Source: Heptranchias perlo
Lineage: Eukaryota
Direction of reading: 5' to 3'
DNA: 64,000 nucleotides
Assembly (NCBI RefSeq): GCF_035084215.1
Contig: NC_090366.1
Coordinates: 10,416,001 to 10,480,000, forward strand
The notes below the pieces were generated by a model. It was not told the DNA's origin and ran no database searches. It worked only from the letters and a program-made list of their open reading frames with translations. This document shows positions 1 through 61,650 of this stretch, in pieces (within the stretch, counting starts at the first letter, position 1; each line of letters starts with the position of its first letter). The translations under genes and the position numbers were made by a program.

Positions 1-3000
1 GTGTCCCATGGAAGAGGAAGGGACCCATTGTAATCGATCCACCTCAGTTGCAGTTTGTCATATGGGCAGCTGTGAGTGATTGAACAGGTCAGTCCAGCTG
101 CTTTTGCAGAAGTCAGTTCCCCATAACCTGAAATCTGTGGCTTGTCTGTAAGAACAAGAGCAAACAGGCGAATTAGGATAATTTCAATCTTAAAACCGGG
201 GAGTGGCCTGTAGCATCACTTTCATCTAAATCTGACAAAGAATTAAAACAATAATTCGCATTTTGTCTTTTATGTATCGCAAGTAGATTTGTTACTCTGA
301 ATTATTCCTCGCAGTTATAAAATAGTTTAGTGCCTCATCGGATAATATATGGCCTCACTTAAATAACCATCAGTCGTGTTATCTCGTATATTATTGATAT
401 AATGCATCTAATAGCTGTAGTCAAGTGAACCAGTCTTGCACGCAAAATTTAGAATCAACGTTCGATCTATAAATATAAGCAACGAGTGTGATAGAGAATA
501 ATGCAGATTAGAAAGTTCCCAGATTCTGTTGCAAAGGAACTTCAGTACAGAAAGATGATGCTCAAGAATGGACAGGCCAGATAAACGACTCGTAACATAG
601 TCCTGTGTCGGGGAACCGCAGCAGTTTACTCTCGTGTGAAACGCATTGAGCTTTCCGTAGGAAATTCATTTTGGCGACATGACATCAGAATCAACAAATA
701 AATGACACAATGTGAAAACATTTTTAACATAACTTTAAAATTTACTTATTCATTCGGATCTAATTAAATACCATGTGCTGAGAATATGTATAGGCACGAA
801 AAAGAAATTGCATTAATTTAGCGCCTTTGACGTCCTCGCGACGTCCAGAAACGCAACACAGAACAGTAATTTGAAGTGTAATGAGGAAGTCATTGACAAC
901 GTAACACGCAGGAGATTATTGGAGAAGATATTAAGAAGTTAGCAATAAACGGTACTGCAGAAACTGAAAGAGGAACTGTTCAGAAGGGAGGAAGCAATGA
1001 ATCGAAGTCCTGTGCAGTTTCTCAGAATGCTTCACATGAGTACGGAGACCCACAAGGTTATGTTCAGGGTCTGCTTCTACTCATTGTGTACATCGATGAC
1101 TTGGATATGGTGGGAGAGGGAGTGATGTCCAAATTTCCCAATAGTAATTATAGCAGATGTAGGGGGTTATCATATGAGGAAAGGTTGGATAAGTTGGGCC
1201 TGTATACACAGGAGTTCAGAGGAATGAGATGTGATCTTATTGAAACATATCAGATCCTGAGCGGACTGGAAGGGGTAGGTGCTGAGAGGACGTTTCCCCT
1301 TGTGGGAGAGATGAAAAATTGGGGCCACAGTTTAAAAAATGGTCACCCATTTAAGACGGAGATAAGGAGATTTTTTTTCTCTGAGAGGGTCATGAGTCTG
1401 TGGAACTCCCTTCCCCAAAGAGCGGTGGAGGCAGGATTATTGAATATTTTTAAGGTTGAGTTCGACAGATTCCTGATTAACAAGGTAGTCAAAGGTTATA
1501 GTGGTTGAGGTCGCAATCAGATCAGAGATGAGCTTATCAAATGACAGAGCAGGCTCGAGGGCCCGAATGGCCTACTCGTGCTCTTAATTCGTATGTTCGG
1601 ATGTGATTTTAACATTTGAAAATGGTGCAAAACTGGCAGCATCGGATCGTTTGCCGACTATACTTCCCGCCCATTTTACTTTCAATTATAATGAGAGGCT
1701 GATCCGATTCCGCCATTTTGACAGCCATGCCAAAGTTGAACGTCCCACACAGCAAATAACTCCCGGAACTAATGCGAGTTTCAGGGGGATAACGGAGAGA
1801 TTGGAGAATGCGGAAATAAGAGGCAGATAAATTTCACTCTCAGTAAACATGAGGTGACAGATTTTAGATTGAACACTGGAACGCCGGTTGATGTGGAAGG
1901 GCAGAGGAATTCGTGGGTTCAAGTGCACAAGACAGTAAACAGCAGCTCCAGTGGAAATGGGCAAGAACCAGCTGCAGGAGTGCTGGTTTTAACGGCAACA
2001 GATGCACAACGTAAAAATCGAGATGTGATGGAGTTCCGAAAGAGAAACATAGTTAGTTCACAGTTGGAATAAGAATGAGAGTTTTGGTTTCTGCTCTCGA
2101 AGAAGGCGACAGGGCGGATTCGCGTGGATTCTGGCTGGTAACAGGAAGTACAAATGCGAGGAACGCCTTCAAAAATTGGGGCAGAACTCAATGGGGCCAA
2201 ACAGATTTTGGAATGCTTTGACAGAAGTGTTTAAACCTATGAAGCAAATGGACAGAGGAGATAGAAACAGACTGAATCTGAACTTGCCGCCGGGGTCAAA
2301 ACTGACGGTCCAGATCAGGCGCCCATTCCAGCAACCGCCCGATTTACATTTCCTTTTATTTCAATGAACATGAAGATATGTTGGTTTCTGTATTAGGTGG
2401 ACGACCCGCACCGCCAGTTTTACGTTTCGGTCAACAAGTTGAAAAGTTATCATCATGTGAAAACTTAACAATAAGTTAGATAGGTGGCTAAAGGGAATGA
2501 CAATAAAGGGATATGGGAACAGGCCAGGCACAGGCGATTAGGAGCGTTGGTCATGTGGAGAATAAACAGCCACACGGACTGGTTGGGCTGTACGACCTGT
2601 TTTACTGCTGTCGTTTCCATATATTTCTATCTTTAGGATATGAACCATTGCATTGTTTAGCCGTATCTCCGCACCAGTGTTGCAACTACCCTTTGAGTTC
2701 GGCCGGGGACATCACAAAATCTGTCCATTTTACACGTTGGTTGAGTCACACTTAAGCACTGGAATAAAATGTGGAAAAGGAACAAAGGAAAAACTCACCT
2801 GAAACAGAAAGGAAGACTTCAGAACGTCCAGTGGCAGGTGTATAAATATACCAGCCCGAGTAGACTTGCACGCTGAAGTAATATGTACCCTCATCACGCT
2901 TCTTGATATTCTTTATCAAAAGGGAGCATTGTCCTTTTGCAAGGTTGCCCTTCAACTCCACTCTCCCACCATAGTTATAAGGCTGCCCATGTGGATTTTC

Positions 3001-3814
3001 CCAATCATAGATAAGGGTGTCCCCGATACCACGAGGATCACGGCCCATCTTGAACCACTTCCCCTTTGGAATGGGGGCAGAGACTGAATGATGAAACGTA
3101 CACGGGATCTGTGCACATGAACCCGAGACTGCCGACACACTATCTGGCATCACCACAGTGCATTCATCACAACAAACAACTGAAAGAAAAACATTAGCCC
3201 TCTTTTAAGTATCCATTCAAAACCCATTGTAATATCTAAAATATCTATTAAAGTATTTGTTAGTTGCCAAATAATCGTCCATCACCATAGCAATTCAAAT
3301 ATGTCAAATGTCCTTTAAATTCAAGCAAAATATACTGATCAAAACACTGATTTAAATGTCCATAATTATACCTGTTTGATAGCAGTTATATGAGACACTA
3401 ATATACAAATGTAATAGTGATATTAACACCGAATAGATATACGCAAAACAGAAAGTGAATGCATAATAAGATTGTTATAAATATATATTTAATATGAACG
3501 AAACTATACATTACACATCCATTGACCATTTGAGAGCTTATTAAGTATAAATTAAAATAATATTAAACGTGGATTAAAATAGACATTAATAATAATTTGA
3601 ATAACAATTAAAATGCAATAAAGCATCTATAAAGCATGCGCTAAACACCCATTGAAATAGTTTCACTGGATTTAAAATGAACAGCCACGTAACATTGGCA
3701 GAAAGAATTATCCTGTACTCTTCGCACAACGTATAATACTTTTTTTGCAGAAATTATTAAAAATTATTTACCGTCTGTCAATGTCATGAGAGAGAGAAAT
3801 ACGCAACTCCTCAT
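1..3814 (-). CDS. Siglec/MAG/CD22-like Ig receptor, copy A (5' part only; continues beyond the left edge)
   Basis: Exons: signal 3772-3814 (ccagccATG; MRSCVFLSLMTLTD), V-set 2799-3179 (GSCAQIPCTF...GQCSLLIKNI...DEGTYYFSVQ), first C2 exon <1-145 (DKPQISGYGELTSAKAAGLTCSITHSCPYDKLQLRW). GT-AG sites, phase-1 introns, open frames. Siglec-type cysteine pattern (B- and E-strand Cys plus extra inter-domain Cys in V and C2). Confidence 0.85.
1060..1600 (+). mobile_element. CR1 LINE 3' end in Siglec-A intron
   Basis: GLSYEERLDKLGLY...DLIETY...LWNSLPQRAVEA...FKVEFDRFL plus 3' tail; shared with copy B. Confidence 0.85.
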
Positions 3815-6082: not shown

Positions 6083-6398
6083 CGAACATACAAACTGACG
6101 AATTAAGAGCAGGAGTCGGCCATTCGGCTCCTCGAGCCTGCTCTGCCATTTGATCAGTACATGGCTAATCTGATTGTGACCTCTACCCTACTTTCCCGTC
6201 TACCTACTATAACCTTTGACTCCCTTGTTAATCAGGAATCTCCCTCACTCAGCCATAAACAATATTCAACGACCTGCTGCCACCCCTCTGTGGGGAACGG
6301 AGTTCCACAGACTCACGACCCTCTGAGAGAAAAAAACTTCTCCGCATCTCCGTCTTAAATGGGAGACCCCTTATTTTTAAACTGTGACCCCAAGTTCC
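6083..6398 (-). mobile_element. CR1 LINE 3' end
   Basis: Reverse complement of the CR1 3' UTR (GAATTAAGAGCAGGAGTCGGCCATTCGG...); paralog of 19447-19760. Confidence 0.75.
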
Positions 6399-6840: not shown

Positions 6841-9800
6841 GTGAGTCGAAAACACTGATTGTTGCCCCACAAAACCAGAGTTAATTGGATGATTACACAA
6901 ACAAGAACTAGAGTAGTCACTGTCCCGATCAGGCAAACATAGCAACCCGTGCAAATAGCAATATCTAAGGGGCACAGTTCTTCTCTACCGTGTGTATAAA
7001 TAAAATACATTGCTCAACGTGCTCAGGCCGAATCGATTTCTGTTTATGGTGTGATCACATCGCAATTGAATATACGACTTTGCTACACAAGCGAACAGCG
7101 TTCATGGCCCATAAAATAGACCATTACAGTTATCAAGAAGAGGAACTTCCTCTTGCTTTTTTCACCCTGCTTTCAGAAGGGCATTATTGCTTTTGATGGC
7201 AACATTCATGTTGCGTCGATATTGGGGTTGCATGCACTGTCAGCCGCACTTACCCCACCGGTCTGCAGGTATATCAGTCAATTGGGATATAATCGCGACC
7301 ATTTCTGGTCGATATCCACTGCCGTCTACATTACACTGGTCGCCTCCAGTGAGCAGTGGGGCGCAGGCTCAATACAATTCTTCTTTTGACACCTGAACCT
7401 GCAATTAAACCTGAGTTGATGTTAGAATGTGCTTAGACTGCTTCCAGTTGTCTTATATAATCAAGCAGGTTAATTTTCTTATCAAAGAACGTTAAGGCAG
7501 AATTACACGGTCGTTTGGCCCATCGATTCTTTGCCTTTAAAAGGTAGCATGGACCCTGCTGAGCAGAGAGAAGAGTTTACCTGTGGTCGATCTTGGCTTA
7601 TGTCATGTGTACAACAGCAGCACCATCATCCCCCCAACAAACACACACCTCGGAGGTAACCTTCGCCATGAATGTTACCAAGTCTCACCTAGGCCTAGGT
7701 AACTCAGGTGTGTTATTGCGAGGGATGGTGTGAACTCCGTGAGAGGCAATTGTAAATTGTATAATGTACATTTGCCAGTAATTTTATTTGGAAGTTCTTA
7801 ATTTGATAACGTTGCAATGTTCTGGCAGGACAGCACAATTGTTTCATTAACTGCCATTCCTGAAACCCCATCAGGTTCTTTACCTGGAATTCAAGAGAAA
7901 CCCACTGAACAGAAAGGAAACATACCAGAGTGAATAACATGGCCGTCGGCGTGAATGGAACAGGCAAGATTAGGGTTCAGTTTGTCTAATTTCTCATAAA
8001 AGAGAAAGTGAATTGTATCCCAAGGCTTTAAGCCCGTGCTTAAATGAAAGGAATTCATCTAAATTACACAAGTTGCCAATAACATGACTCATTCGTTCAT
8101 CATAACAACGCCCGGCTTCCTCTCCAACTCTGACCAAAGATATCACTGGGACCACGTGGTTTAGCGTAGTGCTCGCTGAAACTATCACTATCCAATGCAT
8201 TCAAGATTTTAACTGAAATGTAAATATCACACTGGTTCAATAGGCTTTGGTCTTATGAGGCTGCGACGCAGATGCTGTGTGTGACAAAGCAAGAGATTTT
8301 AAAGAAATGTTTTTTTTCATCCATTTATTTCAAAATTTTCAGACAAAAATACAAATTCTTTATCTTACCAGGTTGATTTCCCTCATCATATTTAAAGCTA
8401 TTATCTTTTTCAATTGGGGTTTTTGAAAACTATACGTACATACTTTCTGTAGGGAGATTTCAGTATCTCTATCCTGTTCATTGGCACTGAGTCCAGCCTT
8501 TTACAAACTGCCTCGATGTTGCTGATCAGCTCACGCTATAAATTATGCCAGGCAGATATTCTTTCCTTCTTAAATTTGCAGGACTAAGGCTGCAACCTTC
8601 CAACAGTATTTACGCAAAGATGTTTACTTGAAACAATGTCTTAAATATTTTGGAAAACTTTATTTAACTGATGTTATGTTTTTTGCGTATTTCACGAACC
8701 AACATACTGAAACGGTTAATCCATTCTCAGTCACCTCGGCCTTTGATGATCTCTATATGGCACTGTTGGTCGCTGCATATTTGATCTGTTCAGGAGATAC
8801 AATTGCTTCTCTTGATTTCTTCCTGAAAAAAAATAATATATTTAATAAATCCCAATAATTAATGAGAACAGAGAAAATGATGTGTTCATAACGTTTTTGT
8901 GTCGATTCATTTTGCAATCTTAATGAGCACATTTCAAGAGAGGAATTCACCTCCAAATTGCTTTTGATTGAAGGTATTCGGATGTCTATGAAGGACTTGT
9001 GCCCACTTTATCAACAACAGTTCCCTACTAAGCCTGGGACAATTGCTTTGCATTTCGCTCCCTTCCCGCCTACATTTCAAAAGTTCGCTTTATTTTTGTC
9101 TCAAAAAGCGGAATCTTGGGATTGTGCTTCTCGCGATGCGAGTTCGGACACATTCGAAAACAAATGTTTTTTTTCAATTTTGACTTGTGGTAACATTTTA
9201 CGCTGAATCCCCGTGTATTCTCGAGGGTACGTTTACCTGTACGTGGACCTATAATTCATTAACTAGCATAAGAGCCAAATTTATCAATATGTCAACAACT
9301 TGTAATTATATAGCGCCGTTAACATAGTAAAACGTCGCAAGGCCCCCTCCCGTCATCCAAAATTAAACATGCGTCAATATGAAAGCCGAGTTTCCGTGCG
9401 GCAGCATTTAGCTCCGAGCTCACCTTCTCCTTTACACCTCCCAGCTGAGACGCAACGTTCCCTGCTCTGAGGGGATGATTAATGTTCATCAAGATTCTTA
9501 TTTTGCAGGATGCCCCGATGTCTTGCTTCATTTTGAATTTGATTCAACCAAACTACAGGTTTATGTAATTATAAAACAACACTTACATCTGTATCTCCTC
9601 AGCAATGAAGGCTGCGGTCAGAATGATATAAATGAGAGCTGTTGATCCTGTCAGGGCGACATGTATCCAGGACAATTTACCTAAAAAAGCAGAAAAGACA
9701 TTGCTCCATATTAGGACATTTATATTTAAATACTGCGCATGACAGACAGAAATGATGACTATGTATTAAATAAAAGCAGTTCTGTAAAAAGATAACAGCT

Positions 9801-10199
9801 GGCTGAAAGATATTTGTCCAGGAGAATATTCCTAAAATGCTGGGAAATGCATTGATACACCTTAGTGTGTTGGGGTTGAAATGCCAATCTTTGACACACA
9901 TTTATGAATCAGAAGGGAAAGTTTCCTCCAAGTTCAGATGATAAAGCTAATGTAAAATTATGGATTACATTCGTCCCATCGTGCTGATCCTTGCGTAGAA
10001 ACAATTTATTACTGCGTTGCGTCCTGGTACAAATTTGCAATCAATAATTTCAGGTTGACTCCTTATTTGTAGTGTACAAATCACATCTGAATAATTGAGT
10101 GCACATGACAATCTCCTGAGTATGTTCCAATCTTGAAAAAAACCAATGGGCATAATGGAATCAGAATACAAGCCGGACAATATCACCAGATGCAGCTAA

Positions 10200-10682
10200 A
10201 TGATCTATATATTTTTTTAATTCGTTCATGGGATGTGGGCGTCGCTGGCGAGGCCGGTATTTATTGCGCATCACTAATTGCCCTTGAGAAGGTGGTGGTG
10301 AGCCGCCTTCTTGAACCGCTGCAGTCCGTGTGGTGAAGGTTCTCCCACAGTGCTGCTAGGAAGGGAGTTCCAGGATTTTGACCCAGTGACGATGAAGGAA
10401 CGGCGATATATTTCCAAGTCGGGATGGTGTGTGACTTGGAGGGGAACGTGCAGGTGGTGTTGTTCCCATGTGCCTGCTGCCCTTGTCCTTCCAGGTGGTG
10501 GAGGTCACGGGTTTGGGAGGTGCTGTCGAAGAAGCCTTTGCGAGCAGCTGCAGTGCATCCTGTAGATGGTACACACTGCAGCCACTGTGCGCCGGTGGTG
10601 AAGGGAGTGAATGTTTAGGGTGGTGGATGGGGTGCCAATCAAGCCGGCTGCTTCGTCCTGGATGGTGTCGAGCTTCTTGAGT
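10200..10682 (-). mobile_element. Non-LTR (CR1-superfamily) element 3' end, second family
   Basis: Near-identical to 24185-24705 and 51820-52470 (GGATGTGGGCGTCGCTGGCGAGGCC...CCCTTGAGAAGGTGGTGGTGAGCCG). Confidence 0.8.
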
Positions 10683-13101
10683 GTTTATCTATGCAGATGA
10701 TTCAATTTCGCGTAGATTGTTAAATACTGGCGTTATATATTCAGATGCGTCTGAACAAGACAGAAACGAACTTGTATACACAAAAGGGTCGATCGCAGTT
10801 TGCTATCCTATGGGGAGAAGAAACCATATTTTCCAAAGGTTATATCTTAATTCAGAAGAAGTGTTTTTTGAATCAAATCGCCGGCTGTTCAGATAACTTA
10901 ATTTTATCTTGACAAATATAAACGAAGCAAATTTCGGAAGACTGATATTTAAAATGTATAATGCCAAACTCAGCCTTCAGTTGGTGATTGTCTACTGATG
11001 AAAAAACCTCCTTAAACTAATTGAACATAGACTCAATATTAAGCTGCTGAATGGACCAGGTATTTGCCGACCCTGAAAACCTTCAGTTAGTGACTGACCA
11101 GTGATGCACCAACTCACTTACAGTATTCAAATGACAGAAAGATTGAACATTTACCCTTAGAGTGGAGCTGGTACTTGCTGATACAATCACCGTGTACGTT
11201 TGCTGCAACACATGAGATTTGAATTCCACTTCCAGTTGGGTGAGTCAGTGTCAGGGAGCTCTCCACCAGGTAACTATTCACCGCCCAGGAGAAGACTTTC
11301 ACATCTGACCTGTTCTCAGTTATGATTGTCCCACTGAGGCCCCATGTAATATTTGCAGGTGGATTGGCTCTGACACTGCAGCTGCAATCAATCCAATTCT
11401 CAGAGCTGGTGCAGTTCGGGCCTGATACTATTGTGGGTTTATCTAAAGAAAAACAGAGACTTCAGTATGAAATGATTATGTCAAACAGTTGCAATGTCCA
11501 AATACCTCTGCTTTAAACATCTTCCGCTGTGCTGGACTGACGTGATCCTTCTAGAGATGTCCAGCTAATAGGGCAACATTTCAAAGAACCTTTTCTCTGA
11601 ATATTGCATTGCTAACTTAATATTAATACAGTTAACAGAGCTTTACTTCCCACCACGTTTGTTGGATATGGTTTGGCGAATTCCTGCTCAGCAAAATGAG
11701 GGATTTCAGTGTAAGAAATAGAGGATTTTTTTTATTTTAGACTGCCAGTATTAGTTAAAAACTGTTACATTTAGAATAAAGCTCCCAGTAAATGTACTCC
11801 TGTCCCAGTCGGAAAGATACCGTCTGCTGCATTTATGTCACATTGTGCACATTCTACTCCTGTCACCCTCAGCGAGTTGGCCAGGTTAGTTTCCATTATT
11901 CGAAATATCGAGGTTGTTTTGCATTATGTCCACAAGGAAAGGAAGACATAACCCAAGCTCATTTCACATTGGCGCTTTACAGCGTGGGTTTTAATCGAGA
12001 GTTTGTGAACTGCAACGCTACTATCTAATTGAGTAATGCATGCACACTTATATTGTGCAGAAATCCGTGTGGTGCTGTTTGCGGTGCCCAGGTTATTTTC
12101 AGCCACACACCAATATTCACCGTCATCTTCTGAACTAATGTTGTGGAATGTCCGCTTTAATTCACTGGTGGAAGATGTGCTGATCTCTTCACCATTTTTC
12201 AACCACCTTAAACTGACCGCTGGTTTTCCCCATGCCCTGCAGCATAATATTAATTAGCTGCCTTCCACCGCTGCTTTAGAGGAATTCACGGTTGTGTTTT
12301 CCAGTCCATCTGTAACAGGCAGTAATGCAAAACGTGAAGCATGATTTAGCTCATAATTAAATCATTATGTTGGGTAAGAGGCCGTGCCGAAATTGCAAAC
12401 TTCTTATTTTACTGCCCCAGAATTTAATGTTATAACAAAAATGATAATCTTCGAGAATTTACCTCTCTCTTCGAATTATGTCTCCTTTGTGGCTTACGTG
12501 CTTTGACACTGGTACATCATTTCGGTCAATTCTGAAGCCCAACCGGAGCTCATATCTGGTATGATAGCTGAAACTAGCTTCAAATCATAACTCGCCTTGG
12601 CATGTTTTGTATCCCTTTATGACTGACTAAACTCAGAAAGACACTACTAGATCTCAGAATAGGAATTAATAATGGCATAAACCAAACTCTTGGAGCCACC
12701 AACATTAATTCATAAATGTGAATCTTCCCCAAATAATCTGGCTGACAAGAATTGGCTGAGAGCCACTCCGATTCACTGATTATCCAAGTGAGCTCTCACG
12801 GTATAGAGACGGAGGTTTCGCGGTGCTTTTTTTGATGCGGTCCTAAACCTTAAATAATTTGCTTATGGTGGAAGGACAAGTGTTGAACCATTCGGCCGAC
12901 AGGTGAGGTCTACTAACTTCAGAGCAGACACTTACATTTGATCTCCAAGGTTAGAATCGGTGGAGAAGAAGTTAGGGAGCCATGAAGTAAAATTGAGCAT
13001 CCTAGACTTTTCCCGTGAAGAGCGGATGATGGAGTGAACGTGAGCACCGATGAAACTCTCCAAGAACCGGAACGTTCATTAACAATTTCTGTTCCATCTT
13101 T

Positions 13102-13338
13102 GATGTGGAGATGCCGGTGATGGACTGGGGTTGACAATTGTAAACAATTTTACAACACCAAGTTATAGTCCAGCAATTTTATTTTAAATTCACACGCTTT
13201 CGGAGATTTTCTCCTTCCTCAGGCAAATGTTTCAAGATCTCGAAACATTTACCTGAGGAAGGAGAAAATCTCCGAAAGCGTGTGAATTTAAAATAAAATT
13301 GCTGGACTATAACTTGGTGTTGTAAAATTGTTTACAAT
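13102..13338. mobile_element. Penelope-like element pLTR fragments inserted as an inverted pair (hairpin) inside Siglec-B exon 3
   Basis: 13135-13340 is a near-perfect palindrome. The right arm matches the 3' end of the Penelope copy at 57033-57127. Flanking direct repeat TGTTCCATCTTT at 13090-13101 and 13339-13350. Empty site in copy C at about 48260-48272. Confidence 0.88.
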
Positions 13339-14439
13339 TGTTCCATCTTTAGTATCCCATGGAAGAGGACGGGACCCATTGTAATCAATCCACCTCAGTT
13401 GCAGTTTGTCATTTGGGCAGCTGTGAGTGATTGAACAGGTCAGTCCAGCTGCTTTTCCAGAAGTCAGTTCCCGATAACCAGAAATCTGTGGCTTGTCTGT
13501 AAGAACAGGAGCAAACGGGCGTATTAGGGTCGTTTCAATCTTAAAACCGGGGAGTGGCCTGAAACAGCACTTCCATCTAAATCTGACAAAGAGTTAAAAC
13601 AATAAATCGCATTTTGTCTTTCATGTATCGCAAGTAGATTCGTTACTCTGAAATACTCCTCGCAGTTATAAAATAGTTTAGTGCCTCATCGGATAACATA
13701 TGGCCCCACTTAAATAACCATCAGTCGTTTTATCTCGTATATTATTCATATAATGGATCTAATAGCTGTAGTCCAGTGAAGCAGCCTTGCACGCAGAATT
13801 TAGAATCAACGTGAGATCTTTAAATATAAGCAACGAGTGTGATAGTGACTAATGCAGATCAGAAAGTTCCCAGATTCTGTTGCAAAGGAACTTCAGCACA
13901 GAAAGATGATGCTCAAGAATGGACAGGCCAGATAAACGACTCGTAACATAGTCCTGTGTCGGAGAACCGCAGCAGTTTCCTCTCGTGTGAAACGCATTGA
14001 GCTTTCCGTAGGAATTTCATTTTGGCGACATGACATCAGAATCAACAAATAAATGACACAATGTGAACACATTTTTTAACATAACTTTAAAATTTACTTA
14101 TTCTTTCGGATCTAGTTAAATACCATGTGCTGAGAATATGTATACGCACGAAAAAGAAATTGCATTAATTTAGCGCCTTTGACGTCCTCGCCAAGTCCAG
14201 AAACGCATCACAGAACAGTAATTTGAAGTGTAATGAGGAAGCCATTGACAACGTAACACGCAGGAGATTATTGGAGAAGATATTAAGGAGTTAGCAATAA
14301 ACGGTACTGCAGAAACTGAAAGAGGAACTGTTCAGAAGGGAGGAAGCAATGAATCTAAGTCCTGTGCAGTTTCTCAGAATGCTTCACATGAGTACGGAGA
14401 CCCACAAGGTTATGTTCAGGGTCTGCTTCTACTCATTGT

Positions 14440-14958
14440 GTACATCGATGATTTGGATATGGTGGGAGAGGGAGTGATGTACAAATTTCCCAATAGTAAT
14501 TACTAGCAGATGTCGGGGGTGAGGGGGTTATCATATGAGGAAAGGTTGGACAAGTTGGGCCTGTATACACAGGAGTTTAGAGGAATGAGATGTGATCTTA
14601 TTGAAACATATAAGATCCTGAGCGGACTAGAAGTGATAGACGCTGAGAGGATGTTTCCCCTTGTGGGAGCGACTCGAACTAGGAGACACAGTTTACAAAA
14701 TGGTCTTCCATTTAAGACGGAGAGGGTCATGCGTCTGTGGAACTCCCTTCCCCAGAGAGAGGTGGAGGCAGGGTCATTGAATATTTTTAAAGTTGAGTTC
14801 GATACATTCCTGATTTTAAAAGGGAGTCAACGGTTATCGAAGGAAGACGGGGAAGTAGGATTGAGGTCGCATTCAGATCAGCCATGATCTTATCAAATGG
14901 CAATGTCGCCTCGAGGGGCCGAAGGGCCTACTCGTACTCTTAATTCGTATGTTCGTAT
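14440..14958 (+). mobile_element. CR1 LINE 3' end in Siglec-B intron (paralog of 1060-1600)
   Basis: ORF 14510-14887 with the same CR1 C-terminal motifs; only the terminal ~100 bp remain in copy C (48770-48880). Confidence 0.85.
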
Positions 14959-26086: not shown

Positions 26087-26092
26087 TTTATT
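26087..26092 (-). terminator. Putative poly(A) signal AATAAA for GPCR-1 (paralogs at 57476-57481 and 7783-7788)
   Basis: AATAAA about 290 nt 3' of the stop codon, retained in all three copies of the spacer block. Confidence 0.5.
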
Positions 26093-26382
26093 TGGAAATG
26101 TTGATGCTTTATCATTATGGACGTATTATCATGAAGACTACTTGGAACTGTATCCTCTTCAGCCTTCTATGAATAAGCCAATAATTAAGTCTGTTTGGCT
26201 GTTTTCTGTAATCGATCTTCAACTTGGTCTTTTTATTGAAGTCCACATACATTGAAATGCAAAGAGCCATTTGAATAATCACACATAAAACGTTTGAAGA
26301 TGGGCTAAATATTATTATTTCTGCAAGACGATATCTGGTATATGAACAGTTAAATAATAATACCAGCAAGCCCATATTTGCT

Positions 26383-48300: not shown

Positions 48301-51061
48301 TGTAATCAATCCACCTCAGTTGCAGTCTGTCATATGGGCAGCTGTGAGTGATTGAACAGGTCAGTCCAGCTGCTTTTCCAGAAGTCAGTTCCCCATGACC
48401 TGAAATCCGTGGCTTGTCTGTAAGAACAGTAGCAAACGGACGTATTAGGTAATTTCAATCTTAAGACCGGGGAGTCGCCTGAAGCAGCACTTCCACTTTC
48501 ACGTCCTTGACACGTCTAGAAAGGCATTACAGAATTTGAAGCGTTATGGGGATGCAATTGACAACCTAACACGCAGGAGAATATTGGAGAAGATGTTAAA
48601 AAGTTAGAAATAAAGGGCACAGCAGAAACTGCAATTCGAACTGTTTAGAAGGGAGGAAGCGGTGAGTCGCAGTTATGTGCAGTTTCTCAGAATGCTTGAC
48701 ATGAGTACGGAGTCCCACAAGGTTATGTTCAGGGTCTGCTTTTACTCACTGTGTACATCGATGATTGTATATAGTGGTAGGGTTGAGATCGCAATCAGAT
48801 CAGCCATTATATTATCAAATGGCAGAGCAGACTCGAGGGGCCGAATGGCCTACTCGTGCTCTTAATTCGTATGTTCGGATGTGATTTTAACATTTGAAAA
48901 TGGTGCAAAACTGGCAGCATCGGATCGTTTGCCGACTATACGTCCCGCCCATTTTACTTTCAATTATCATGAAAGGCTGATCCGATTCCGCCATTTTGAC
49001 AGCCATGCCAAAGTTAAATGTTCCTCGCATCAAATAACTACGGGAAATAAAGGGAGTTGCAAGTGGATAATGGAGAGATTGGAGAATGCGGAAATAAGAG
49101 GTAGATAAAATTCACTGTCAGTAAACATGAGTTGGCAGATTTTTGTTTGGACACTGGGACGCTGGTTGATGTGAATGGGCAGAGGAATTGGTGGGTTCAA
49201 GTTCACGAGGCAGTGAACCGCAGCTCCAGTGGAAAAGGGCAAGAACCAGCTACATGAGTCCTGATTTTAACGACAACAGGTGTACAATATGAAAATCGAG
49301 ATGTGACGGAGTTCCGAAAGAGAACCATAGTTAGTTCACAGTTGGAATAAGAAAGCGAGTTTTGGTTTCTGCTCGAGAGGAAGGCGACAGGGCGGATTCG
49401 CGTGGATTCTGGCTGGTAACAGGAAGTATGAGGAAGTACAAATATGTGGAACACCTTCAAAAATTGGGCAGAACTCATTTGGGCAAAACAGATTTTGACA
49501 GGAGTGTTTATCCTGTGCAGAAAATGGACAGAGGAGATAGAAACGGACTGAATCTGAACTTGCCGCCGGGGTCAAAGCTGGCGGTCCAGATCAGGCGCCC
49601 ATTCCAGCAACCGCCCGATTTACATTTCCTTTTATTTCAATGAACATGAAGATCTGTTGGTTTCTGTATTAGGCGGACGACCCGCACAGCCAGTTTTACG
49701 TTTCGGTCAACAAGTTGAAAAGTTATCATCATGTGAAAACTTAACAATAAGTTAGATAGGTCGCTAAAGGGAAATGGCAATAAAGGGATATGGGAACAGG
49801 CCAGGCACAGGCAATTAGGAGTGTTGCTCATGTGGAGAATAAACAGCAACACGGACTGGTTGGGCTGTACGGCCTGTTTTACTGCTGTCATTTCCATATA
49901 TTTCTGTCTTTAAGATATGAACCATTGCATTGCTTATCCGTATCGCCGCACCCTGTGTTGCAACTGACCTTTGAGTTCGGCCGGGGACATCACAAAATGT
50001 GTCCACTTTACACGTTGGTTGATTCACACTGAAGCATTGGAATAAAATGTAGAAAAGCAACAAAGGAAAATCTCACCAGAAACAGAAAGGAAGACTTCAG
50101 AACGGACAGTTTTATATGTAGTAATAATCCAGCCCCAGTGGCCTTGCACGCTGAAGTAATATGTACCCTGATCACGCTTCCGGATATTCTTTAACAAAAG
50201 GGAGCATTGTCCTTTCGCAAGGTTGCCCTTCAACTCCGCTCTCCCACCATAGTTATAACGCTGTCCATATGGATATGTCGAATCATAGATAATGGTGTCC
50301 CTGGTGTTACGGCCCCTCTTTATCCACTTCCCCCTTGGCTTGGGGGTAAAGGCTGAATGATGAAACGTACACGGGATCTGCGCACATGAACCCGGCACTG
50401 CCGACACAATAGCTGGCATCACCACAGTGTATTGAGCACAACAAACAACTGAAAAAAAAACATTAGCCCTCTTTTAATTATCCATTCAAAACCCATTGTA
50501 ATATCATAAATATCTATTAAAGTATCTGTTAATTGACAAATAATCGCCCATCACCATAGCAATACAAACGTCCTTTAAAAATCAAGTAAAATACGAATTA
50601 AATATCAATCAAAATATTGATTTAAATGTCCACAGTTATACCTTTTTGATAGCAGTTTTAAGAAACACTAATATGCAAATTGAATAGTCATAATAACACT
50701 GAATACAAATGCTCAAAACAGAAAGTGAATGTCCAATAAGATTGTCATAAATACTGATCGTTAAAATCTTATTAAATATAAGTTAACCTAATATTAAAGA
50801 TGGATTAAAATGCTCATTAAAAATAATTCGTAATGTCCAATAAATACCATTTGAATAGGAATTAAAACACCTATAAAGTATGCATTTAATACCCATGTAA
50901 TTGTTTCGCAAGATTGAAAGTCAATAGTCACGTATCATTTGCAGGAGGAATTCTCCTCTACTCTTCCCACAACATATCAGTCATTTTTTGCAGAAATTAT
51001 TCGTAAAAAATTATTTACCGTCTGCCAGTGTCATGAGGGAGAGAAACACGCAACTCCTCAT
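42371..51061 (-). CDS. Siglec/MAG-like inhibitory Ig receptor, copy C (complete, about 546 aa; V + 3 C2 + TM + ITIM tail)
   Basis: complement(join(42371-42538,44196-44283,45818-45917,46321-46620,47241-47498,48106-48417,50077-50448,51019-51061)) = 1641 nt. All GT-AG, phases consistent, no internal stops seen. TM IGGGACGLIIVIAVVVMV. Tail motifs VIYAVV, VLYASI and terminal TCEYATIKHN*. Confidence 0.88.
42730..43370 (+). mobile_element. CR1 LINE 3' fragment in the last intron of Siglec C
   Basis: LQRVKRRSTRVLAGMRLFSYAERLEKLELFS...; 3' UTR ending GAATGGCCTCCTTCTGTGCTGTATGATT. Confidence 0.8.
46105..46270 (+). mobile_element. Short CR1 3' end with TTCTTATG tail repeats
   Basis: GGAGCAGGCTCGAGGGGCCGAATGGC...TTCTTATGTTCTTATGTTCTTATG. 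Confidence 0.75.
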
Positions 51062-54757: not shown

Positions 54758-56463
54758 CAACGTTATTTCTCACGGAAAATGCATGCACCAGCAATTGATC
54801 GGGTTTGTGCTGTTTACTTTCCTGGTCTTACTGCAGTCGGTATTCTGAATAATTTATTGCAACAGCTGTTGCAATCTGCAATGCAGACCCTTCCAGCTGC
54901 TCCTATGTAGGTGTTTCTGGGTATTATGGGTTATTTTAATTTCCTTTTAATTCCAATAATTAGAGAGCTGAAAGGAGCGCACGATAGCTATCTAATTAAA
55001 ATGTGATGTGATGTGATCACTCACTGGTTGGGCCTCAGCTGGAGTATTATGTCCGATTCTGGGCTCTGCATTTTAATAAGACTGTCAAAGCCTTTGAGAC
55101 GGTGCCAATGAGATTGACCAGAATGGCTCTGTCCGGACGATGTCTAAACATCTGTTAGAACATCAACAGATAGCAATGGTGGTAAATCACGTTGAGAGCG
55201 CTGGTCGCCTACTATTCCTGTTTGCCGCCGTTCCTGGAACACGAGGTCAACGGGATTTGAGGCCTGGGGGTGGGGGGTGGTCGTTGGTGGGGGGCCGGGG
55301 GGTGGCGGCGGTACTGGGGACTATAATCAAGTGAGCTTTTGATAGCTAGGCAAGTAAACTGTTGTCGTGTTATTTACGCTTGCCCGATATGGAGGCCCCT
55401 AAACATTCGAACTAAAAGTGATTCTTAATACTGAAGTCATCAACCTTTAGAATTGCCATGTTTATGTGAGCTGAGCCATCTAATTCTGGATATGCCTTAA
55501 TTGTGCAGGCACCGATGTTCTTAATAGGGGTGCATCACTGGAAACGAATTGTTAATTGTGTACAGATAAGCTGTGAAACGGCTCTTCCGTATGGGGAATT
55601 TGTAGTTTAATCGAGATAAGGACGAAATGCGTGTAAACAGATGATGTTTCTTGAAGGATAAGCAGCTAAATTGGAACTGACTTGACATTGCCGAGGAATG
55701 CAGGGGTGGCTGTCGGGTGTCCTTGAGCAGAGACGACAATTCATGAATAAAAATTAGCTATAAAAATGGCTGAGCCTGCCACTGGATTTAGAACAGGCTT
55801 TGATTAAGAGGAGTTCCGCCACAACACATATACTCCCTTCGTCAGACAATGCACACTTGATCTGCACATTACTGCAAATAAATGCTTTGAATTAATCTTC
55901 TATGTCAGCGTATTTATTTCTGGTGTCCGAAGTCACTGATTGCACAAGCAAAAACTAGAGTAGTCATTATCACTATAAGGCAAACATAGCAACCCATGCA
56001 AATAGCAGTATCTAACGGGTACAGTCCTATAAATGTGTGTATAAATGAAATAGATTGCTCAATGTACTCAGGCCAAATTGATCTCCATGGATGTTGTGAT
56101 AAAATCGCAATTGAAGATACGATTTTGCTACACAAACGAACAGAGCCCATGCCTCACAAAATAGATCATTAAAGATATCCAGCAGAGGAATTTCATCTCA
56201 CTCCTGTCACTCTACTGTCAGAGGGACATCCTTTCTTTTGATTTTAATGTTCGTGTTTCGACGATACCGGAGTTGCATGCACTGGCAGGTACACTGACCC
56301 ACCAGTTCACAGCTATTTCCGTCTATCGGGAAGTAATCGAGTCCTTTTGTGGTGGAAAGCATTACCATATAAATTGCACTGCTCGCCTACAGCGTGCAGT
56401 AAATTTTTTTCCTTTAGCATCCAAATCAGTAATTAAAGCAGAGGTGATGTCAGAAGGTGCATA

Positions 56464-57127
56464 TGATGTGGAACATTGGCGAGACCATGGTACATTGGCG
56501 AGACCATGCAGACGCTGCGACAACGGATGAACGGACACCGCGCAACAATCGCCAAACAGGAGGGTTCCCTCCCAGTCGGGGAACACTTCAGCAGTCATGG
56601 ACATTCATCCACCGACCTTCGGGTAAGCGTACTCCAAGGCGGCCTTCGAGACACACGACAACGCAAAATCGTCGAGCAGAAATTGATAGCCAAGTTCCGC
56701 ACCCATGAGGACGGCCTCAACCGGGATCTTGGGTTCATGTCACGCTACACGTTACCCCACCAGCGAACAAATGTTATCTGTTTTTAATATAATGGGTCAT
56801 TTGCTGGCTCTCTCTGCCTTCCGGATGTTTCTGCCTCTCTCTGTGTTTTTTTTTTCTCTGTTTTTTTTCCCTGTTTGTTTTTTTGTTGAATGTGTATTCG
56901 GAGGTTCTGCAGGTAACACCTCTCTGTCTGAACACGGTGATTGCCTTGGCAACGGGCAGTTGCAGGGGCAGTCTGTAAACACCATGTATTATTGTTCAAT
57001 ATGTATAAATGCGTAGGCTTCAAGGAGATCTTGAAACATTTGCCTGAGGAAGGAGAAAATCTCCGAAAGCTTGTGAATTTAAAATAAAATTGCTGGACTA
57101 TAACTTGGTGTTGTAAAATTGTTTACA
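56464..57127 (+). mobile_element. 5'-truncated Penelope-like retroelement (GIY-YIG endonuclease C-terminus + pLTR)
   Basis: ORF 56476-56787 WYIGETMQTLRQRMNGHR...VGEHF...EQKLIAKFRTHEDGLNRD is GIY-YIG-like. 12-bp TSD AGAAGGTGCATA at 56452-56463 and 57128-57139. Empty sites in paralogous blocks near 7425 and 25720. Confidence 0.88.
57038..57078 (+). ncRNA. Minimal type I hammerhead ribozyme in the Penelope pLTR
   Basis: Stem I ATTTGC(57038-43)/GTGAAT(57073-78); core CTGAGGA (57044-50) plus one extra A; stem II GGAG-aaaat-CTCC; GAAA (57065-68); palindromic AAGCTT in place of stem III. Matches the architecture known for Penelope hammerheads. Confidence 0.7.
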
Positions 57128-57906
57128 AGAAGGTGCATAGACTGCTTCCAGTTGGCTTACATAATCAAGCTAGTTAATTTTCTTATCATAGAAGGTTAAG
57201 GCAGAAATACCCCGTCGTTTGGCCCATTGAACCTGTGCCGTTAAAGGGCAGCGTGGTCCCAGCTAAATAAAGAGCAGAGAGTTTACCTGTGGTCGATTTG
57301 GTTTCTACGATTTGTTCACCAGCAACAACTCCCCTCACACCTTGGAGGGAACCTCAGCCTTGAATCTTTCCAAGTCTCACCTAAGCGTAAGTAACTGAGG
57401 TGTGTTAGTGCGAGGGATAGTGTGAACTCCATGACAGGCAATTTTAAACTCTATGAGTACAAATTTGTCAGTAATTTTATTAAGAAATGTTTCAGCATGG
57501 TGATGGGTATACACATATGTTGGCATCAGGCGAACCAAGACATGTCTTGTTAAACAGAGCGAAAGTTATGTTACTATTATCGCAAAATAACTTTTATCCT
57601 TCTTGTGTTCTTGATCATTGCGTTGACATCGTATTATCCTTAATATCGTGGACTTATTATAATAAGGAGTACGTGGAACTGTATCATGTTCAGCCTTGGA
57701 ATCTCTGAGCAAGCCAAGAGCTAAGTCTGTTTAGTTATTTCCTGAAAACGACCATTGAACCTTAGTCGATATAGAGGGAAATGAAAAGAGCCACTTGAGA
57801 ATCAAACATAAAACCTCTGAAAAGAGGCCAACATACTGTTATTTCTACAAGAGGCTGCCTGCTATATGAAAAGTTAAATTATAACACCAGCTAGTCCATA
57901 GTTTTT

Positions 57907-60900
57907 CTAATTATCTAAAAACTTAACAATTTGATTCATTGGATATTTCACCATTTTCTTTAACTCCTCTCTGAATTTAGTTTGTGTCACTGCATAAATA
58001 AACGTGTTTGTGCAGCAGCTCAAAAGTAGAAGCATATATCCGGTTTCTTGAAGGATATAAATCGGGTCATTGTAACCAGTGTAAGAATAAGTATTAGTAA
58101 TTCGACAGTACAAGTAATGGATCGTGTACGTCAGCCATAACAGTATAAAATTGCCGGATATACTGAAGAGTAAAATTATGGATTTTCTCCTGTTCTCCAT
58201 CTCAGCATCAGGTTTGCTTTCAGAGCTGGTGTTGCCCCGCAATGCCCTGCGGACTCTACTGGCCACTACTATATATCTCACGGTCACAGCATTGAGTAGC
58301 AAAATAACAAAAAATGGGAGAAAAGGGGTCGCTATGCAGTCGAAATAAGAAAATGCTAACCATAGGCGTGAAGTATAAAAGCTTGATCTTATCCGGCAAT
58401 ACCACGGCAATTTGTTAATTATATACAGAGGTTCATATATAAAGTAGCAGGGGATGTTTTTCATGCAGCTCAGGGCAAGCACCGTGCCTACAACCGCAAC
58501 TGCTGTTTCCTTGGTGCAATATTTATTTGTCAAGTTCGGGCAACAAATGGCTATAAAGCGATCAAAGGTGAAAGCGACTGTTAACCAAACAGAAAAGTCC
58601 CTGGTTGCATAAACTAGGGCGGTTTTGGTCCTACATATCGGAGTAAGCAACAGAAAATTTCCGGGAAAGTAAATGTCAATGATCCGATTGAGTATAACGC
58701 CAGTGACGACAACCAATAGATCCGCCGCTGCCATACCCACCAGATATTGAGTGATGCATTTGGAGAGACCGCACTTTCCTCGGGACAGGATCACAATCGC
58801 TATTATGTTAACTGTAGGGAAAGCAAAGAAAGCAAGATAATTAATTCTTGGCAGACTTTAATAGACAGTATCAGTTCACAATCAGGATGTGTTCAATTCA
58901 AAAGTTTATAACTACACTCCGCATAGAAACATATAGCCAGCATTTCCGAGTAAATGTAGGTTGCTAATTGCAACCGTGTCAGCCGAGGCTCAGTGGGCAG
59001 CACTTCTCGCCTCTGAGTCAGACGGTTGTGGGTTCAAGTCCTACTCCAGCGGCTTGCGCATATACTCTCGCTTGACACTTCTATGCAGTACTAAGAGAGT
59101 GCTGCAGTGCCCTGGCCAATATTTTTCACTCAACCGAATTAACTGGTTGTTGCCTCATTGCTGTTTGTGGGACCTTGCTGTGCGTAATTGGCTGCCGCAT
59201 TTCCCTATATTGTAACAGTGATGACAATTCACAATACTCCATTGGCTGCAAAGCGCTTCAGGACGCCCTTAGCTCGTGAAAAGCGCTATATTTATTCTTC
59301 CCTCTCTTTTTAAAATCAAGATGGGGTGGGTTAATTTAATATGATATTTGGAAGTCATGAGAAAAAGAAAGATTGAACAGGAAATCAAATTTGGTACTAG
59401 AATTGGACTAGAAAAGGTTTTAAAATAAATTTAAAATTGAGTTATGATATGCCGAATTGAAGGCAATAAGATTAATTTGAATCAATGATTTTCAAACAAA
59501 CAATAAAATAAACAACAATGAATCTGAAATAAGTTAATTGAATGAAATAAAATGCAATGGGAAGCGAGTTTGTGATTAACAATACAACTAATGAAGGTGG
59601 AAAAACCCAATAAAATCAGGAAACGTAATGAATGACAGACACCGGGGCCAGGCGAACAGAAATTTGGAGAGTGGCAGGTGGACTGAAATGAGTGAATTCG
59701 GATTGTGGCTGCAGATCAGGCAGGAATATTTTGGAATGAGGAAAGCGCCGCTGACTGACCACCCTTGGTCTCCAGATCTGAGGGCATTTGGCACATCACT
59801 GATTAGCAAACCGATTGCTCGATCTCATTTTCAAACTATTTTTTGATGGGGGTCGAGAGTGGGGGAGGCGACATAGAACTGATATAAAACTTTACATGCG
59901 CTGAGCTACTCTTTACAATTAACGAGCAGAATTTACATGTTGCAATATGTCCTCCAGTAAAATTATATTGTAAATAAGCTTAATACTCCTGAGCTTTATT
60001 GATGGGTCAGTGGGCAAGTATCATGCCTTCTGCAGATAGCACAGCCGGACTCAGAGATGCCGGCGGTGGAAGGGACATCAGTCAACGTTCTTACTTGTAA
60101 CCAGCACGAGTGAAAAGCGCCTGAGTGTGATAGACTGGCGAGGACATGATGTAGCTAATCAATAAAATGGCCTCTATGATCAAGAGATTGATAAACCTCC
60201 CTATTGAAGGTGGGGGTGCGGAAGAGGGCGCATCAATAACAGGACAGGCATCTGAAGGCTGACAGAGCCTGTGGGTCCTGATAACGGAGCAACAGGAGGA
60301 AGCTGAAAATAATTGCTTATTATCTCTGACTAAATCTTTGAATCATGTGTCAATGTCATCAATATTAAATGCGACAATAACATGCAAATTGTAAAAATAA
60401 TAACTGGCGTTTGAAATTACACACGACGCCCAAACAGCTCAAAGACTTCGACCAGTAAAGTACAGTTTGGACTGTGATGATGGTTAACTTGTTCTGCAGC
60501 AAATTTGCGCCTCTGAAATAGCGATCAGGTAAAGCTGTCGAACGCCTGCTTTGTCCGTGGCGTTGGTTGAACAAGGTTGCTGCAGGACTGACTTGGTGCT
60601 TATCCGCCGCAACCAAAGAGTTAACTCGCGTTTGGGATGAAATGATATATATTAAAAACAGGTTTTAAGTAGCACACTTCGCATTGTCATCCAGTTAAAA
60701 TAAGAACGGATCCTTTGCAAGGAAGAGAAAAATAAAAAGGAACAACGAAGGACAGAGAAAGAAAGGGAGACGAGAAATCGAAAGAGAGAGAGGGCAAGAG
60801 AGGGAGGGGGGAGATAGCTATGGTAGCCGTAGTCAAATGAATGTATTTTCTATATTATTTCAAAATAATTACTAGAAATAATGATTGACATAACAACTGA

Positions 60901-61508
60901 AACTTGAATACATTTTACTTCAGATATATAGTTAATACAATAAGATTCTTGTTTTAATTATTGGAATAGTTTATATCATTGACAGGGGAGACGATGGAAA
61001 GCGCCCCACCCATGCACCTGGTTGGAGTTGAATCGTTAACCTACATGGTGAAACAGTTCAATATTCCTCAACCCCTACATTTGCACACTGTACATCGATC
61101 TACACCCAATGGAAGTTTAAAGCAAAACTCAGCATCTATCAACACATATTTAAAAGTCGCTGCCACGTTTCATTCTGGACACGAGGTAGCAAGTCGTTTG
61201 AAGAAGACTGTTTGAGAAATGCTGTCTATGTTGGAGCGGAAATAACTATGATTTCAGTAAAAGGTTACATTAAATACATAATGTAAAGTTAGGATAGCTT
61301 AGCCATTGAGCGATTACCCCAGAATATATGACTATTCAGCAAACACACTCACCCAGACAGATTCATTTATCATATCCGCATCAAGAACAATGAAACAGTT
61401 TAACGCAAGTTCGCACTCCTGGTAAGATTACGACTTACCTGGGATACCAACAGCCGAAAGAATTGGATAGTAAATTGCATACACCTGACCAGTTACTGGC
61501 TCATGCAT
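57907..61508 (-). CDS. Rhodopsin-class orphan GPCR, GPR139-like family (GPCR-3, 324 aa, 2 exons; close paralog of GPCR-1)
   Basis: Exon 1 61439-61508 (MHEPVTGQVYAIYYPILSAVGIP) + exon 2 57907-58811. Roughly 90% aa identity to GPCR-1 by eye; intron and flanks are also homologous. Confidence 0.9.
58980..59300 (+). mobile_element. tRNA-derived SINE (DeuSINE-like), internally deleted, in GPCR-3 intron
   Basis: A-box-like GGCTCAGTGG, B-box GGTTCAAGTCC; paralogous to 27460-27890. Confidence 0.65.
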
Positions 61509-61559
61509 TCTCTCTCACAAGCGATTACGTCTCAACTGCCTCAACACATGGTTTGCGGT

Positions 61560-61650
61560 AGAACCAATATATAGGTCACGGGAGCCTCCAGTGACACAAT
61601 TAGGTAACATAATTACTGATGTTAGTTCCCCTCGTTTGCACAAACAAACT
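61560..61650 (-). promoter_or_regulatory. Putative GPCR-3 proximal promoter (TATATA 61568-61573; 26-mer 61599-61624)
   Basis: Conserved with the GPCR-1 upstream region. Confidence 0.55.

Follow-up and report, generated by a model that had tools for sequence, protein, structure and literature searches.

Two receptor families, orphan G protein-coupled receptors (GPCRs) and Siglec-like immunoglobulin (Ig) receptors, interleave along a 64,000-nucleotide stretch of the Heptranchias perlo genome, hereafter the window, carried by a contig that we call C45. The genes studied lie on the minus strand and, read in that direction, run GPCR-3 > spacer > Siglec C > GPCR-2 > GPCR-1 > spacer > Siglec B > spacer > Siglec A. 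A sequence-only reading of the window had proposed this order, and exon models together with Pfam domains place all genes accordingly. It had also put a ~0.9-kb spacer in three places, and comparison of the window with itself recovers all three. The features, in window coordinates, are:

1..3814, minus strand: 5' portion of Siglec-like A (exon 1 at 3814-3772, V exon at 3179-2799, beginning of exon 3)
6884..7793, no strand given: spacer copy A, no GPCR attached, truncated at its GPCR-side end
8750..17164, minus strand: Siglec-like B (V exon 16532-16152)
22922..22990, plus strand: remnant of a GPCR exon 1, orphan, on the opposite strand
25179..26097, no strand given: spacer copy B, flanking GPCR-1 on its 3' side
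26383..29647, minus strand: GPCR-1, type-1 GPR139-like, intact open reading frame (exon 1 29647-29579, exon 2 27287-26383)
33928..35988, minus strand: GPCR-2, type-2 GPR139-like, intact (Pfam 7tm_1)
42371..51061, minus strand: Siglec-like C, 8 exons, 546 aa, intact and spliced (gene model, Pfam, RNA joints)
54779..54844, plus strand: remnant of a GPCR exon 1, orphan, on the opposite strand, exon 2 not found
55675..57491, no strand given: spacer copy C, flanking GPCR-3 on its 3' side and interrupted by a repeat insertion
57907..61508, minus strand: GPCR-3, type-1 GPR139-like class A receptor, intact, 324 aa (Pfam 7tm_1)

The GPR139-like receptors

All three window GPCRs score above the Pfam cut-off for 7tm_1. 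GPCR-3 (exon 1 61508-61440, exon 2 58811-57907) agrees with database protein P0001 when compared by eye. GPCR-2 is 70-71% identical in nucleotides to the type-1 receptors GPCR-1 and GPCR-3 and has no spacer. The 3' half of Siglec C/A was duplicated together with it, and a 98% copy lies at C45:10400895.

In mammals, FPR GPCRs adjoin the CD33-related Siglecs and FFAR GPCRs adjoin CD22/MAG. The shark locus likewise sets a GPCR array next to Siglec genes, but the GPCR family is a different one, as the sequence-only reading had held. FPR and FFAR structures are present in the PDB, and the 60 PDB matches listed at E<=0.1 include neither family. Human GPR139 (PDB 7vug, 9m42) is among the top matches of a window GPCR, at weak similarity (phmmer E 4.9e-8), although the prolactin-releasing peptide receptor (PrRPR) stands slightly above it in the phmmer ranking (E 1.6e-8). 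Sequence databases label the shark homologs "probable GPR139". In the alignment the NPxxY Pro is missing from both GPR139 and the shark GPCR, and the shark genes have an intron within TM1, as does the GPR139 gene. A DRY-like F[DE]R[FYSC] motif occurs in 111 of the 120 listed homologs and an NPxxY-like N[TP]xIY motif in 117. A literature search on FPR or FFAR genes beside Siglecs found nothing, and we know of no co-duplication of the FPR-Siglec or FFAR-CD22/MAG pairs.

GPR139 is single-copy in mammals, whereas this GPR139-like family of chondrichthyans yields at least 1,523 exact matches (737+786) to a 30-nt exon-2 motif across this one shark genome, with 0 and 0 matches for reversed-pattern controls. 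Of the more than 1,500 copies, nearly all are located elsewhere: 116 of the 126 best-scoring sit on contigs other than C45, and 209 kb of control sequence from C2 and C38 contains 5 GPCR loci and 0 Siglec-like matches. Purifying selection acts on the GPCRs, with dN/dS of 0.14-0.33 in 21 of 21 pairs. Duplications at least about 10 kb long and 98% identical carry the dispersed copies. We rejected the family as cargo of one mobile element: over 10 kb, dispersed subfamilies share the GPCR exon and common repeats only. Single subfamilies may still be such cargo, since the ends of the units were not reached.

Siglec-like receptors and the sialic-acid arginine

Siglec C (database protein P0121) comprises a signal peptide, a V-set domain, three further Ig domains, a transmembrane (TM) segment and a cytoplasmic tail with two ITIM-type motifs, VIYAVV and VLYASI, and a terminal EYATI motif (CEYATI). 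All of its introns (7/7) are present as CT..AC joints in RNA contigs. We predict from its sequence an inhibitory (ITIM/SHP-type) leukocyte receptor. In Siglec B, exon 3 is broken by a 237-bp palindromic insertion (about 13102-13338), the TM exon differs (about 9680-9587), and the annotated short tail (P0122) has no ITIM. The gene may be a pseudogene or, as annotated (P0122), an exon-4-skipping three-Ig form. Siglec A leaves the window at the left edge and extends to C45:10409166. With a V exon 96.9% identical to B and 86.3% to C, and exons 3-8 94-98% identical to C, it is a mosaic whose 5' part is B-type and whose 3' part is C-type. A and B each carry one exon-4 stop and a dead exon-4 donor (GT>AT). 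Among the three, only C is clearly intact, ITIM-bearing and spliced.

V-set and Ig_CD22 exceed the Pfam cut-off in all three V exons, and further Ig domains follow. Siglecs form intra-sheet and inter-domain disulfides using two cysteines of the B-strand region and one of the E strand. This pattern is present here, CAQIPC and GQCSLL aligning with CVSIPC and RNCTLL of MAG. That the receptors lack the essential arginine, as had been claimed, proved correct: at the F-strand Arg column, A, B and C carry Ser, and three MAG sequences and one frog protein carry Arg. The arginine is retained in same-cluster paralogs (for example at C45:10242778, 10261207, 10307890 and 3626796) and absent from 14 of the 18 shark V domains aligned, across several shark orders. 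Siglec C is unlikely to bind sialic acid via the canonical Arg site.

The V exon of the Siglec-like genes changes fast, with dN/dS of 0.84-2.43 across 15 pairs, where counts are small and some copies are broken. V-exon matches number 33 among 68 candidates, every one on C45. A word-limited protein-homolog search with the V exon gave 2 proteins among 97 candidates. The best non-shark matches of the Siglec-like proteins are MAG, at 23-27% identity, and the 38 matches include no ray or skate Siglec-like protein, a weak negative. PMC6288428 describes mammalian CD33-related Siglecs as a 19q13.4 cluster of V-set plus C2 receptors with ITIMs, in which the N-terminal domain changes fastest, gene conversion and null alleles occur, and human Siglec-XII and great-ape Siglec-5 are Arg-mutant members. 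Measured against that account, the shark genes are likewise clustered V-set plus Ig receptors with ITIMs whose N-terminal domain changes fastest, but in the shark set Arg loss is the majority state.

Co-duplicated segments with shifting endpoints

The spacer is the 3' flank of the type-1 GPCR, carried along. Copies A and B (6884-7793 vs 25179-26097) are 84.2% identical, and B and C (24925-26102 vs 55675-57491) ~76% identical in two pieces. The insertion in C, a repeat of ~660 bp (about 56464-57127), has a weak GIY-YIG match below the Pfam cut-off. Because the spacer has seven copies in a 3.25-Gb genome, all on C45, the duplication is far beyond chance. The type-1 GPCR is kept at three of the seven, one of which has a stop; one deletion common to three copies removes it, and copy A was cut separately. 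As to what else the spacer might be, a transposon is ruled out, with all seven copies adjoining these genes and the open reading frames in or beside them lacking a Pfam match. A conserved enhancer is unsupported, since the 76% identity of B and C is no higher than that of other flanks (77%).

Homology had been proposed to run from the GPCR promoter through the Siglec gene. Collinear blocks (11102-29792 vs 46268-61652, 70-87% identity) bear out much of this span, but the strong B/C homology ends after Siglec exon 5, beyond which it amounts to 165 bp at 75%. GPCR dS of this cassette pair is 0.21. The pairing extends past a single duplication, as C45:3.467-3.487 Mb carries a third GPCR>Siglec copy. 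The left flank of that 3.4-Mb cluster holds five mostly broken GPCR loci of another subfamily and one fragment; the right flank searched at 10.58-10.78 Mb has no GPCR match and no Siglec match.

A functional cassette should have constant boundaries and one-to-one pairing. Instead, a GPCR is the next same-strand gene upstream at 5 of 22 Siglec V loci, as surveyed over 604 kb in the two nearest clusters (the third V-exon cluster is at 13.1-14.0 Mb), and Siglec A is a mosaic. Three separate events removed or broke the type-1 GPCR, and breakpoints shift between duplication events and fall inside Siglec genes. The open-frame Siglec relatives E and B5 have a next upstream gene that is not a GPCR. 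Because of these losses and varying breakpoints, the unpaired E and B5, and the location of most GPCRs elsewhere, the pairing is no fixed unit. Gene groupings are congruent in part: in the three complete cassettes GPCR and V exon both group (B,B3), but exons 4-5 group B3 with C, and a fourth type-1 GPCR disagrees with the Siglec grouping (pairwise identities, very few taxa). At C45:10355313 a type-1 GPCR, 92-93% identical in nucleotides to GPCR-1/3, stands before a Siglec whose V identity to C is only 29%; this GPCR and its paralog have the upstream neighbour in common, not the downstream one.

Two gene arrays at a probable common border

Spliced forms of Siglec C and GPCR-3 (joint 58811/61439) both occur in run X1, which is one bulk sample from one study, strand unknown. 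So far, then, this single sample gives no sign that the two families are expressed in unrelated tissues. We take X1 as RNA because it has canonical splice joints, and some of it may be DNA. The GPCR-3 joint was not seen in runs X2-X4, and the GPCR-3 intron bins have little or no cover; such absence of cover is no evidence. One X4 contig has variants matching paralogs E/B5 at 13 of 14 sites, yet differs far less than E/B5 do.

The neighbourhood appears to be old, since Siglec-like and GPCR homologs share contigs in Heterodontus (44.1 Mb and 0.996 Mb), Carcharodon and Cetorhinus, that is, at contig level in three of the seven other shark species with contig data. To that extent the association is present in other chondrichthyans.

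Co-duplicated segments, shifting endpoints, mosaic or broken Siglecs and repeated GPCR loss are what the locus displays. The explanation we consider probable is that two arrays meet here and that duplications straddling their border copied neighbours together, likely as hitch-hiking, without a functional link. A GPR139-like orphan GPCR array would adjoin a Siglec-like Ig-receptor array, both evolving by birth and death. Duplications across the border, most likely by unequal crossing-over, would copy neighbouring genes of both jointly, with selection for the GPCR-Siglec pairing presumably absent. The sequence-only reading had left a co-regulated module and passive hitch-hiking as equals; given the co-duplication, the latter fits best and the former has the weaker case. 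Some observations run against hitch-hiking. The clearly intact Siglec of the spacer set, C, keeps an intact GPCR, and every copy with a lost or broken type-1 GPCR (A, D, B1, B3 and a 3.50-Mb remnant) has a damaged Siglec, a pattern expected under co-retention that rests on about four independent lineages. The shared splicing in X1 and the old neighbourhood in three other sharks point the same way.

That splicing could also reflect position, in the form of a shared leukocyte-active chromatin domain or GPCR transcription running toward the Siglec promoter, with no functional coupling. About 7 kb separates GPCR-3 from Siglec C, both being on one strand, and some of this interval is covered by X1 contigs (54680-55245 and 55318-55866, 0-1 differences). 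We regard this as unlikely: the 15 of 22 joints listed include no GPCR-to-Siglec joint, C has its own signal-peptide exon with contigs reaching just upstream of it (51040-51487 in X1), and the intergenic DNA is not specially conserved. It is less likely still that selection has held together, in sharks, a GPR139-like sensor and an Arg-less ITIM Siglec-like receptor as an anciently linked pair co-transcribed in one leukocyte type. Much the same low standing, if marginally lower, belongs to a selected module in which a leukocyte GPCR senses a ligand and the Arg-less ITIM receptor dampens that pathway, the two being kept and copied as a unit. The three GPCR>Siglec cassettes, the tendency of intact to go with intact and broken with broken, the old linkage, the joint presence in one RNA run and the interleaving of type-1 GPCRs with Arg-less Siglecs only would all suit such a module. 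Against it, the partner of the intact GPCR-1, Siglec B, is broken or has no ITIM; a GPCR directly upstream is missing from 17 of 22 V loci and from the open-frame E and B5; one other shark has 17 listed GPCR clusters and 3 listed Siglec clusters on one contig; and breakpoints cut through the Siglec gene. Uncollapsed haplotypes or misjoined repeats, suggested by the many near-identical (98%) duplications elsewhere in the genome, are effectively refuted by divergence: cassette copies differ by 8-25% and have copy-specific insertions, and RNA contigs agree with C exon by exon.

In the openly available portions of the literature searched, subscription papers being outside its scope, we found no account of the GPCR expansion, a shark Siglec cluster or GPCR-Siglec pairing; the tandem-cluster tables of bioRxiv 10.1101/2025.06.08.657570 may include the GPCR family. 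PMC8455134 reports a "relative paucity" of GPCRs in cartilaginous fishes, with which a GPR139-like family of at least 1,523 copies does not fit easily. If the ancient co-transcribed pair were real, this huge orphan family would amount to a repertoire for immune sensing whose inhibitory partner comes built in. Leukocyte co-expression, if it held, would be a first clue to where the family acts. If hitch-hiking is correct, the locus is an ordinary but well-traced interleaving of two birth-and-death arrays, its border cassettes followed copy by copy. It is then useful as a handle on two neglected families, the GPR139-like GPCRs and an old clade of shark Siglec-like receptors that bear ITIMs and mostly lack the sialic-acid arginine.

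Layout of the window and its two receptor families

Self-alignment of the window, together with its three 7tm_1 open reading frames and its three V-set/Ig_CD22 exons, bears out the gene order proposed by the sequence-only reading: along the minus strand, GPCR-3, spacer, Siglec C, GPCR-2, GPCR-1, spacer, Siglec B, spacer and Siglec A. All three copies of the ~0.9-kb spacer lie where that reading had placed them. Positions 11102-29792 form collinear blocks with 46268-61652 (70-87% identity), and 1-6397 aligns with 13352-19761 at 90.9%. The first exon of every window GPCR spans 23 codons. Database proteins that equal those encoded here, or nearly so, bear Heptranchias perlo labels. Between Siglec C and GPCR-2, 37300-41700 holds CT-rich and GC-rich low-complexity tandem repeats, and 40366-40965 resembles a retroelement fragment.

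The GPCRs belong to a very large family. FPR and FFAR genes neighbour Siglecs in mammals; neither appears among the 60 PDB matches listed, which are headed by PrRPR (E 1.6e-8) and GPR139 (E 4.9e-8). Of 5,366 database candidates, 2,536 proteins pass E<=1e-10. Among the 120 homologs listed, 119 are labelled as coming from sharks, rays or skates and one has no name; most are called "probable GPR139". Across the 3.25-Gb genome, a 30-nt motif from exon 2 is matched exactly at 1,523 sites, against none for controls; the first 100 listed cluster in two places, the initial 7 Mb of contig C2 and 4.4 Mb of C3 at 138-142 Mb. The GPR139-like family, with at least that many motif matches, occurs throughout the genome and is dense in megabase-scale blocks, such as C2:0.1-7.0 Mb, C3:137.8-142.2 Mb and C38:9-17.5 Mb. 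Copies on C38 and C1317 sit in duplicated segments that are at least about 10 kb long, 98-99% identical and found in both orientations. On C45, which carries the window at 10,416,001-10,480,000, LTR-retroelement-like ORF pieces occur at 3.27-3.38 Mb amid mostly broken GPCRs of another subfamily.

Two GPCR protein searches of the genome yielded 4,504 and 4,548 candidates at first look; scoring covered 126 and 131 of them, with 10 on C45 in each case. For the Siglec-like V exon, 33 of 68 candidates matched, every one of them on C45, and 209 kb of control stretches held five GPCR loci and no Siglec-like match. With nearly all GPCRs off C45, the vast majority therefore lack a Siglec neighbour.

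Segments that duplicate with shifting borders

The analysis also covered the surroundings of the window (C45 10.226-10.78 Mb), a paralogous cluster on the same contig (3.21-3.66 Mb), and controls on three other contigs. The 604 kb over the two nearest clusters contain 10 full-length GPCR loci and 22 V loci (23 rows, two being one locus), and the next same-strand gene upstream is a GPCR for five of the 22. Because some 290 bp separate the GPCR-1 stop from the start of the spacer downstream of it, the spacer is GPCR 3' flank. Only three of its seven copies keep a type-1 GPCR: those of B and C, and the copy at C45:3.467 Mb, whose GPCR has a stop. A single deletion, equivalent to window 26349-31332, took this GPCR from three copies, one of which (paralog D) now follows a type-2 GPCR; the spacer of A was cut by a separate event. 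The fourth type-1 GPCR, at C45:10355313, has no spacer and was copied along with its upstream neighbour; the Siglec after it shares 29% V identity with C.

Breakpoints also fall inside genes. Judged by exon identities, Siglec A is a mosaic: its V exon is 96.9% identical to B and 86.3% to C, while exons 3-8 are 94-98% identical to C. Since its 3' flank also holds a 98% copy of GPCR-2, the latest duplication joined the Siglec 3' half to the other GPCR, breaking within the gene. By pairwise identities among the three full cassettes, GPCR and V exon both pair B with B3 (the C45:3.467 Mb cassette), but exons 4-5 pair B3 with C.

The same segments that copied the GPCR and Siglec genes also copied dead, opposite-strand GPCR exon-1 remnants, as passive cargo would be. 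These face away from the Siglec promoter and are relics of a lost opposite-strand GPCR.

Orphan GPCR exon-1 remnants
22922-22990, plus strand, window
54779-54844, plus strand, window
C45:10353990, outside the window
C45:10395660, outside the window
C45:3471700, outside the window

Spacer identity (76%) matches that of other flanks (77%), giving no extra conservation. GPCR dN/dS is 0.14-0.33 in 21 of 21 pairs; that of the V exon is 0.84-2.43 across 15 pairs, with small counts and broken copies included.

Loss of the essential Arg and decay of the Siglec genes

The Siglecs are Arg-less, as the sequence-only reading held: in the column of the MAG F-strand Arg, B and C align Ser, and A carries the same motif. 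The alignment covers 18 shark V domains (three V-less shark matches were omitted): the Arg is missing from 14 and present in four. It is kept in all four non-shark sequences, namely one frog and three MAG-type sequences taken from 16 mammalian matches. The losses span several orders, and most of the proteins have ITIM-type tails (database proteins P0121-P0141). Arg-mutant Siglecs are known in primates (PMC6288428). The Siglec-like clusters at C45:10.24-10.47 Mb and 3.43-3.65 Mb are inverted paralogs that share about 90% identity over several kb. Both contain Arg-bearing as well as Arg-less members, and a third V-exon cluster, at C45:13.1-14.0 Mb, is more distant.

Siglec C is an intact gene of eight exons and 546 aa whose splice sites are canonical; it encodes four Ig domains, a TM segment and motifs of ITIM type. 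RNA-type contigs show its introns as CT..AC joints, seven of seven in runs X1, X2 and X3 and six of seven in X4, all from one sample of one study. A short Thr-Gly repeat in exon 5 (46385-46410) differs in length among copies (exon 288-300 nt). In X4, a spliced, otherwise C-like contig over 46518-48420 agrees with paralogs E/B5 at 13 of 14 variant sites and may be a converted allele or a chimeric contig.

Siglecs A and B are damaged. Both have an exon-4 stop, not the same one in each, and the same GT>AT donor change. Exon 3 of B also carries a palindromic 237-bp insertion (13102-13338), flanked by a short duplication. This insertion corresponds to the end of a highly abundant repeat at 57025-57128, which has a weak, Penelope-like GIY-YIG match.

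Exon 4 with the GT>AT donor
12052-12309, window, Siglec B
C45:10414951-10415208, Siglec A

Because A, B and D share the donor change, their stops differ and exon 4 is symmetrical (258 nt), exon skipping could yield in-frame 3-Ig proteins, a way in which 4-Ig receptors may turn into 3-Ig ones. The database model for B (P0122) omits exon 4, and its tail is short and lacks an ITIM; certain paralogs, such as C45:3645594-3649401, have no match to this exon.

Origin of the GPCR-Siglec neighbourhood

The sequence-only reading left open a co-regulated, co-expanding module or passive hitch-hiking. Co-duplication of GPCR and Siglec segments stands; the module is weakened by how few V loci and spacers keep a GPCR and by the shifting breakpoints. 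No paper listed in literature searches describes either the pairing or the expansion of the GPCRs. PMC8455134 reports that GPCRs are relatively scarce in cartilaginous fishes, bioRxiv 10.1101/2025.06.08.657570 names SUCNR1 and V2R among tandem clusters, and neither "gpr" nor "siglec" occurs in PMC11979771.

Three sets of results, from RNA, from copy retention and from other sharks, weigh against hitch-hiking. Positional co-expression of the two genes would fit X1, which holds the GPCR-3 intron joint together with all Siglec C joints and has contigs over 54680-55245 and 55318-55866, between GPCR-3 and C. DNA carry-over is a conceivable source of that coverage, the contigs carry neither strand nor transcript-continuity information, and none of the 15 joints shown, of 22, links GPCR to Siglec. 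We consider positional co-expression unlikely. A selected module of sensor and brake would agree with the spacer-bearing set, where the sole Siglec that is clearly intact has retained an intact GPCR and every copy lacking an intact type-1 GPCR shows damage, a pattern resting on about four independent lineages. Given the loose pairing, we regard such selection as very improbable.

The neighbourhood itself is old, since Siglec-like and GPCR homologs share same-sized contigs in Heterodontus (44,089,062 and 995,541), Carcharodon (16,521,807) and Cetorhinus (13,667,426). These are three of the seven further species for which contigs are given; in the remaining four, none of the 120 listed GPCRs matches, a result that carries no information. 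In Heterodontus the GPCR that matches best (85%) is on another contig, and a shared chromosome is not gene-level pairing. We think it probable that the pairing arose at the border of two arrays, where unequal crossing-over between paralogous segments would have copied together whatever neighbours fell between the breakpoints, with deletion, insertion and decay then following.
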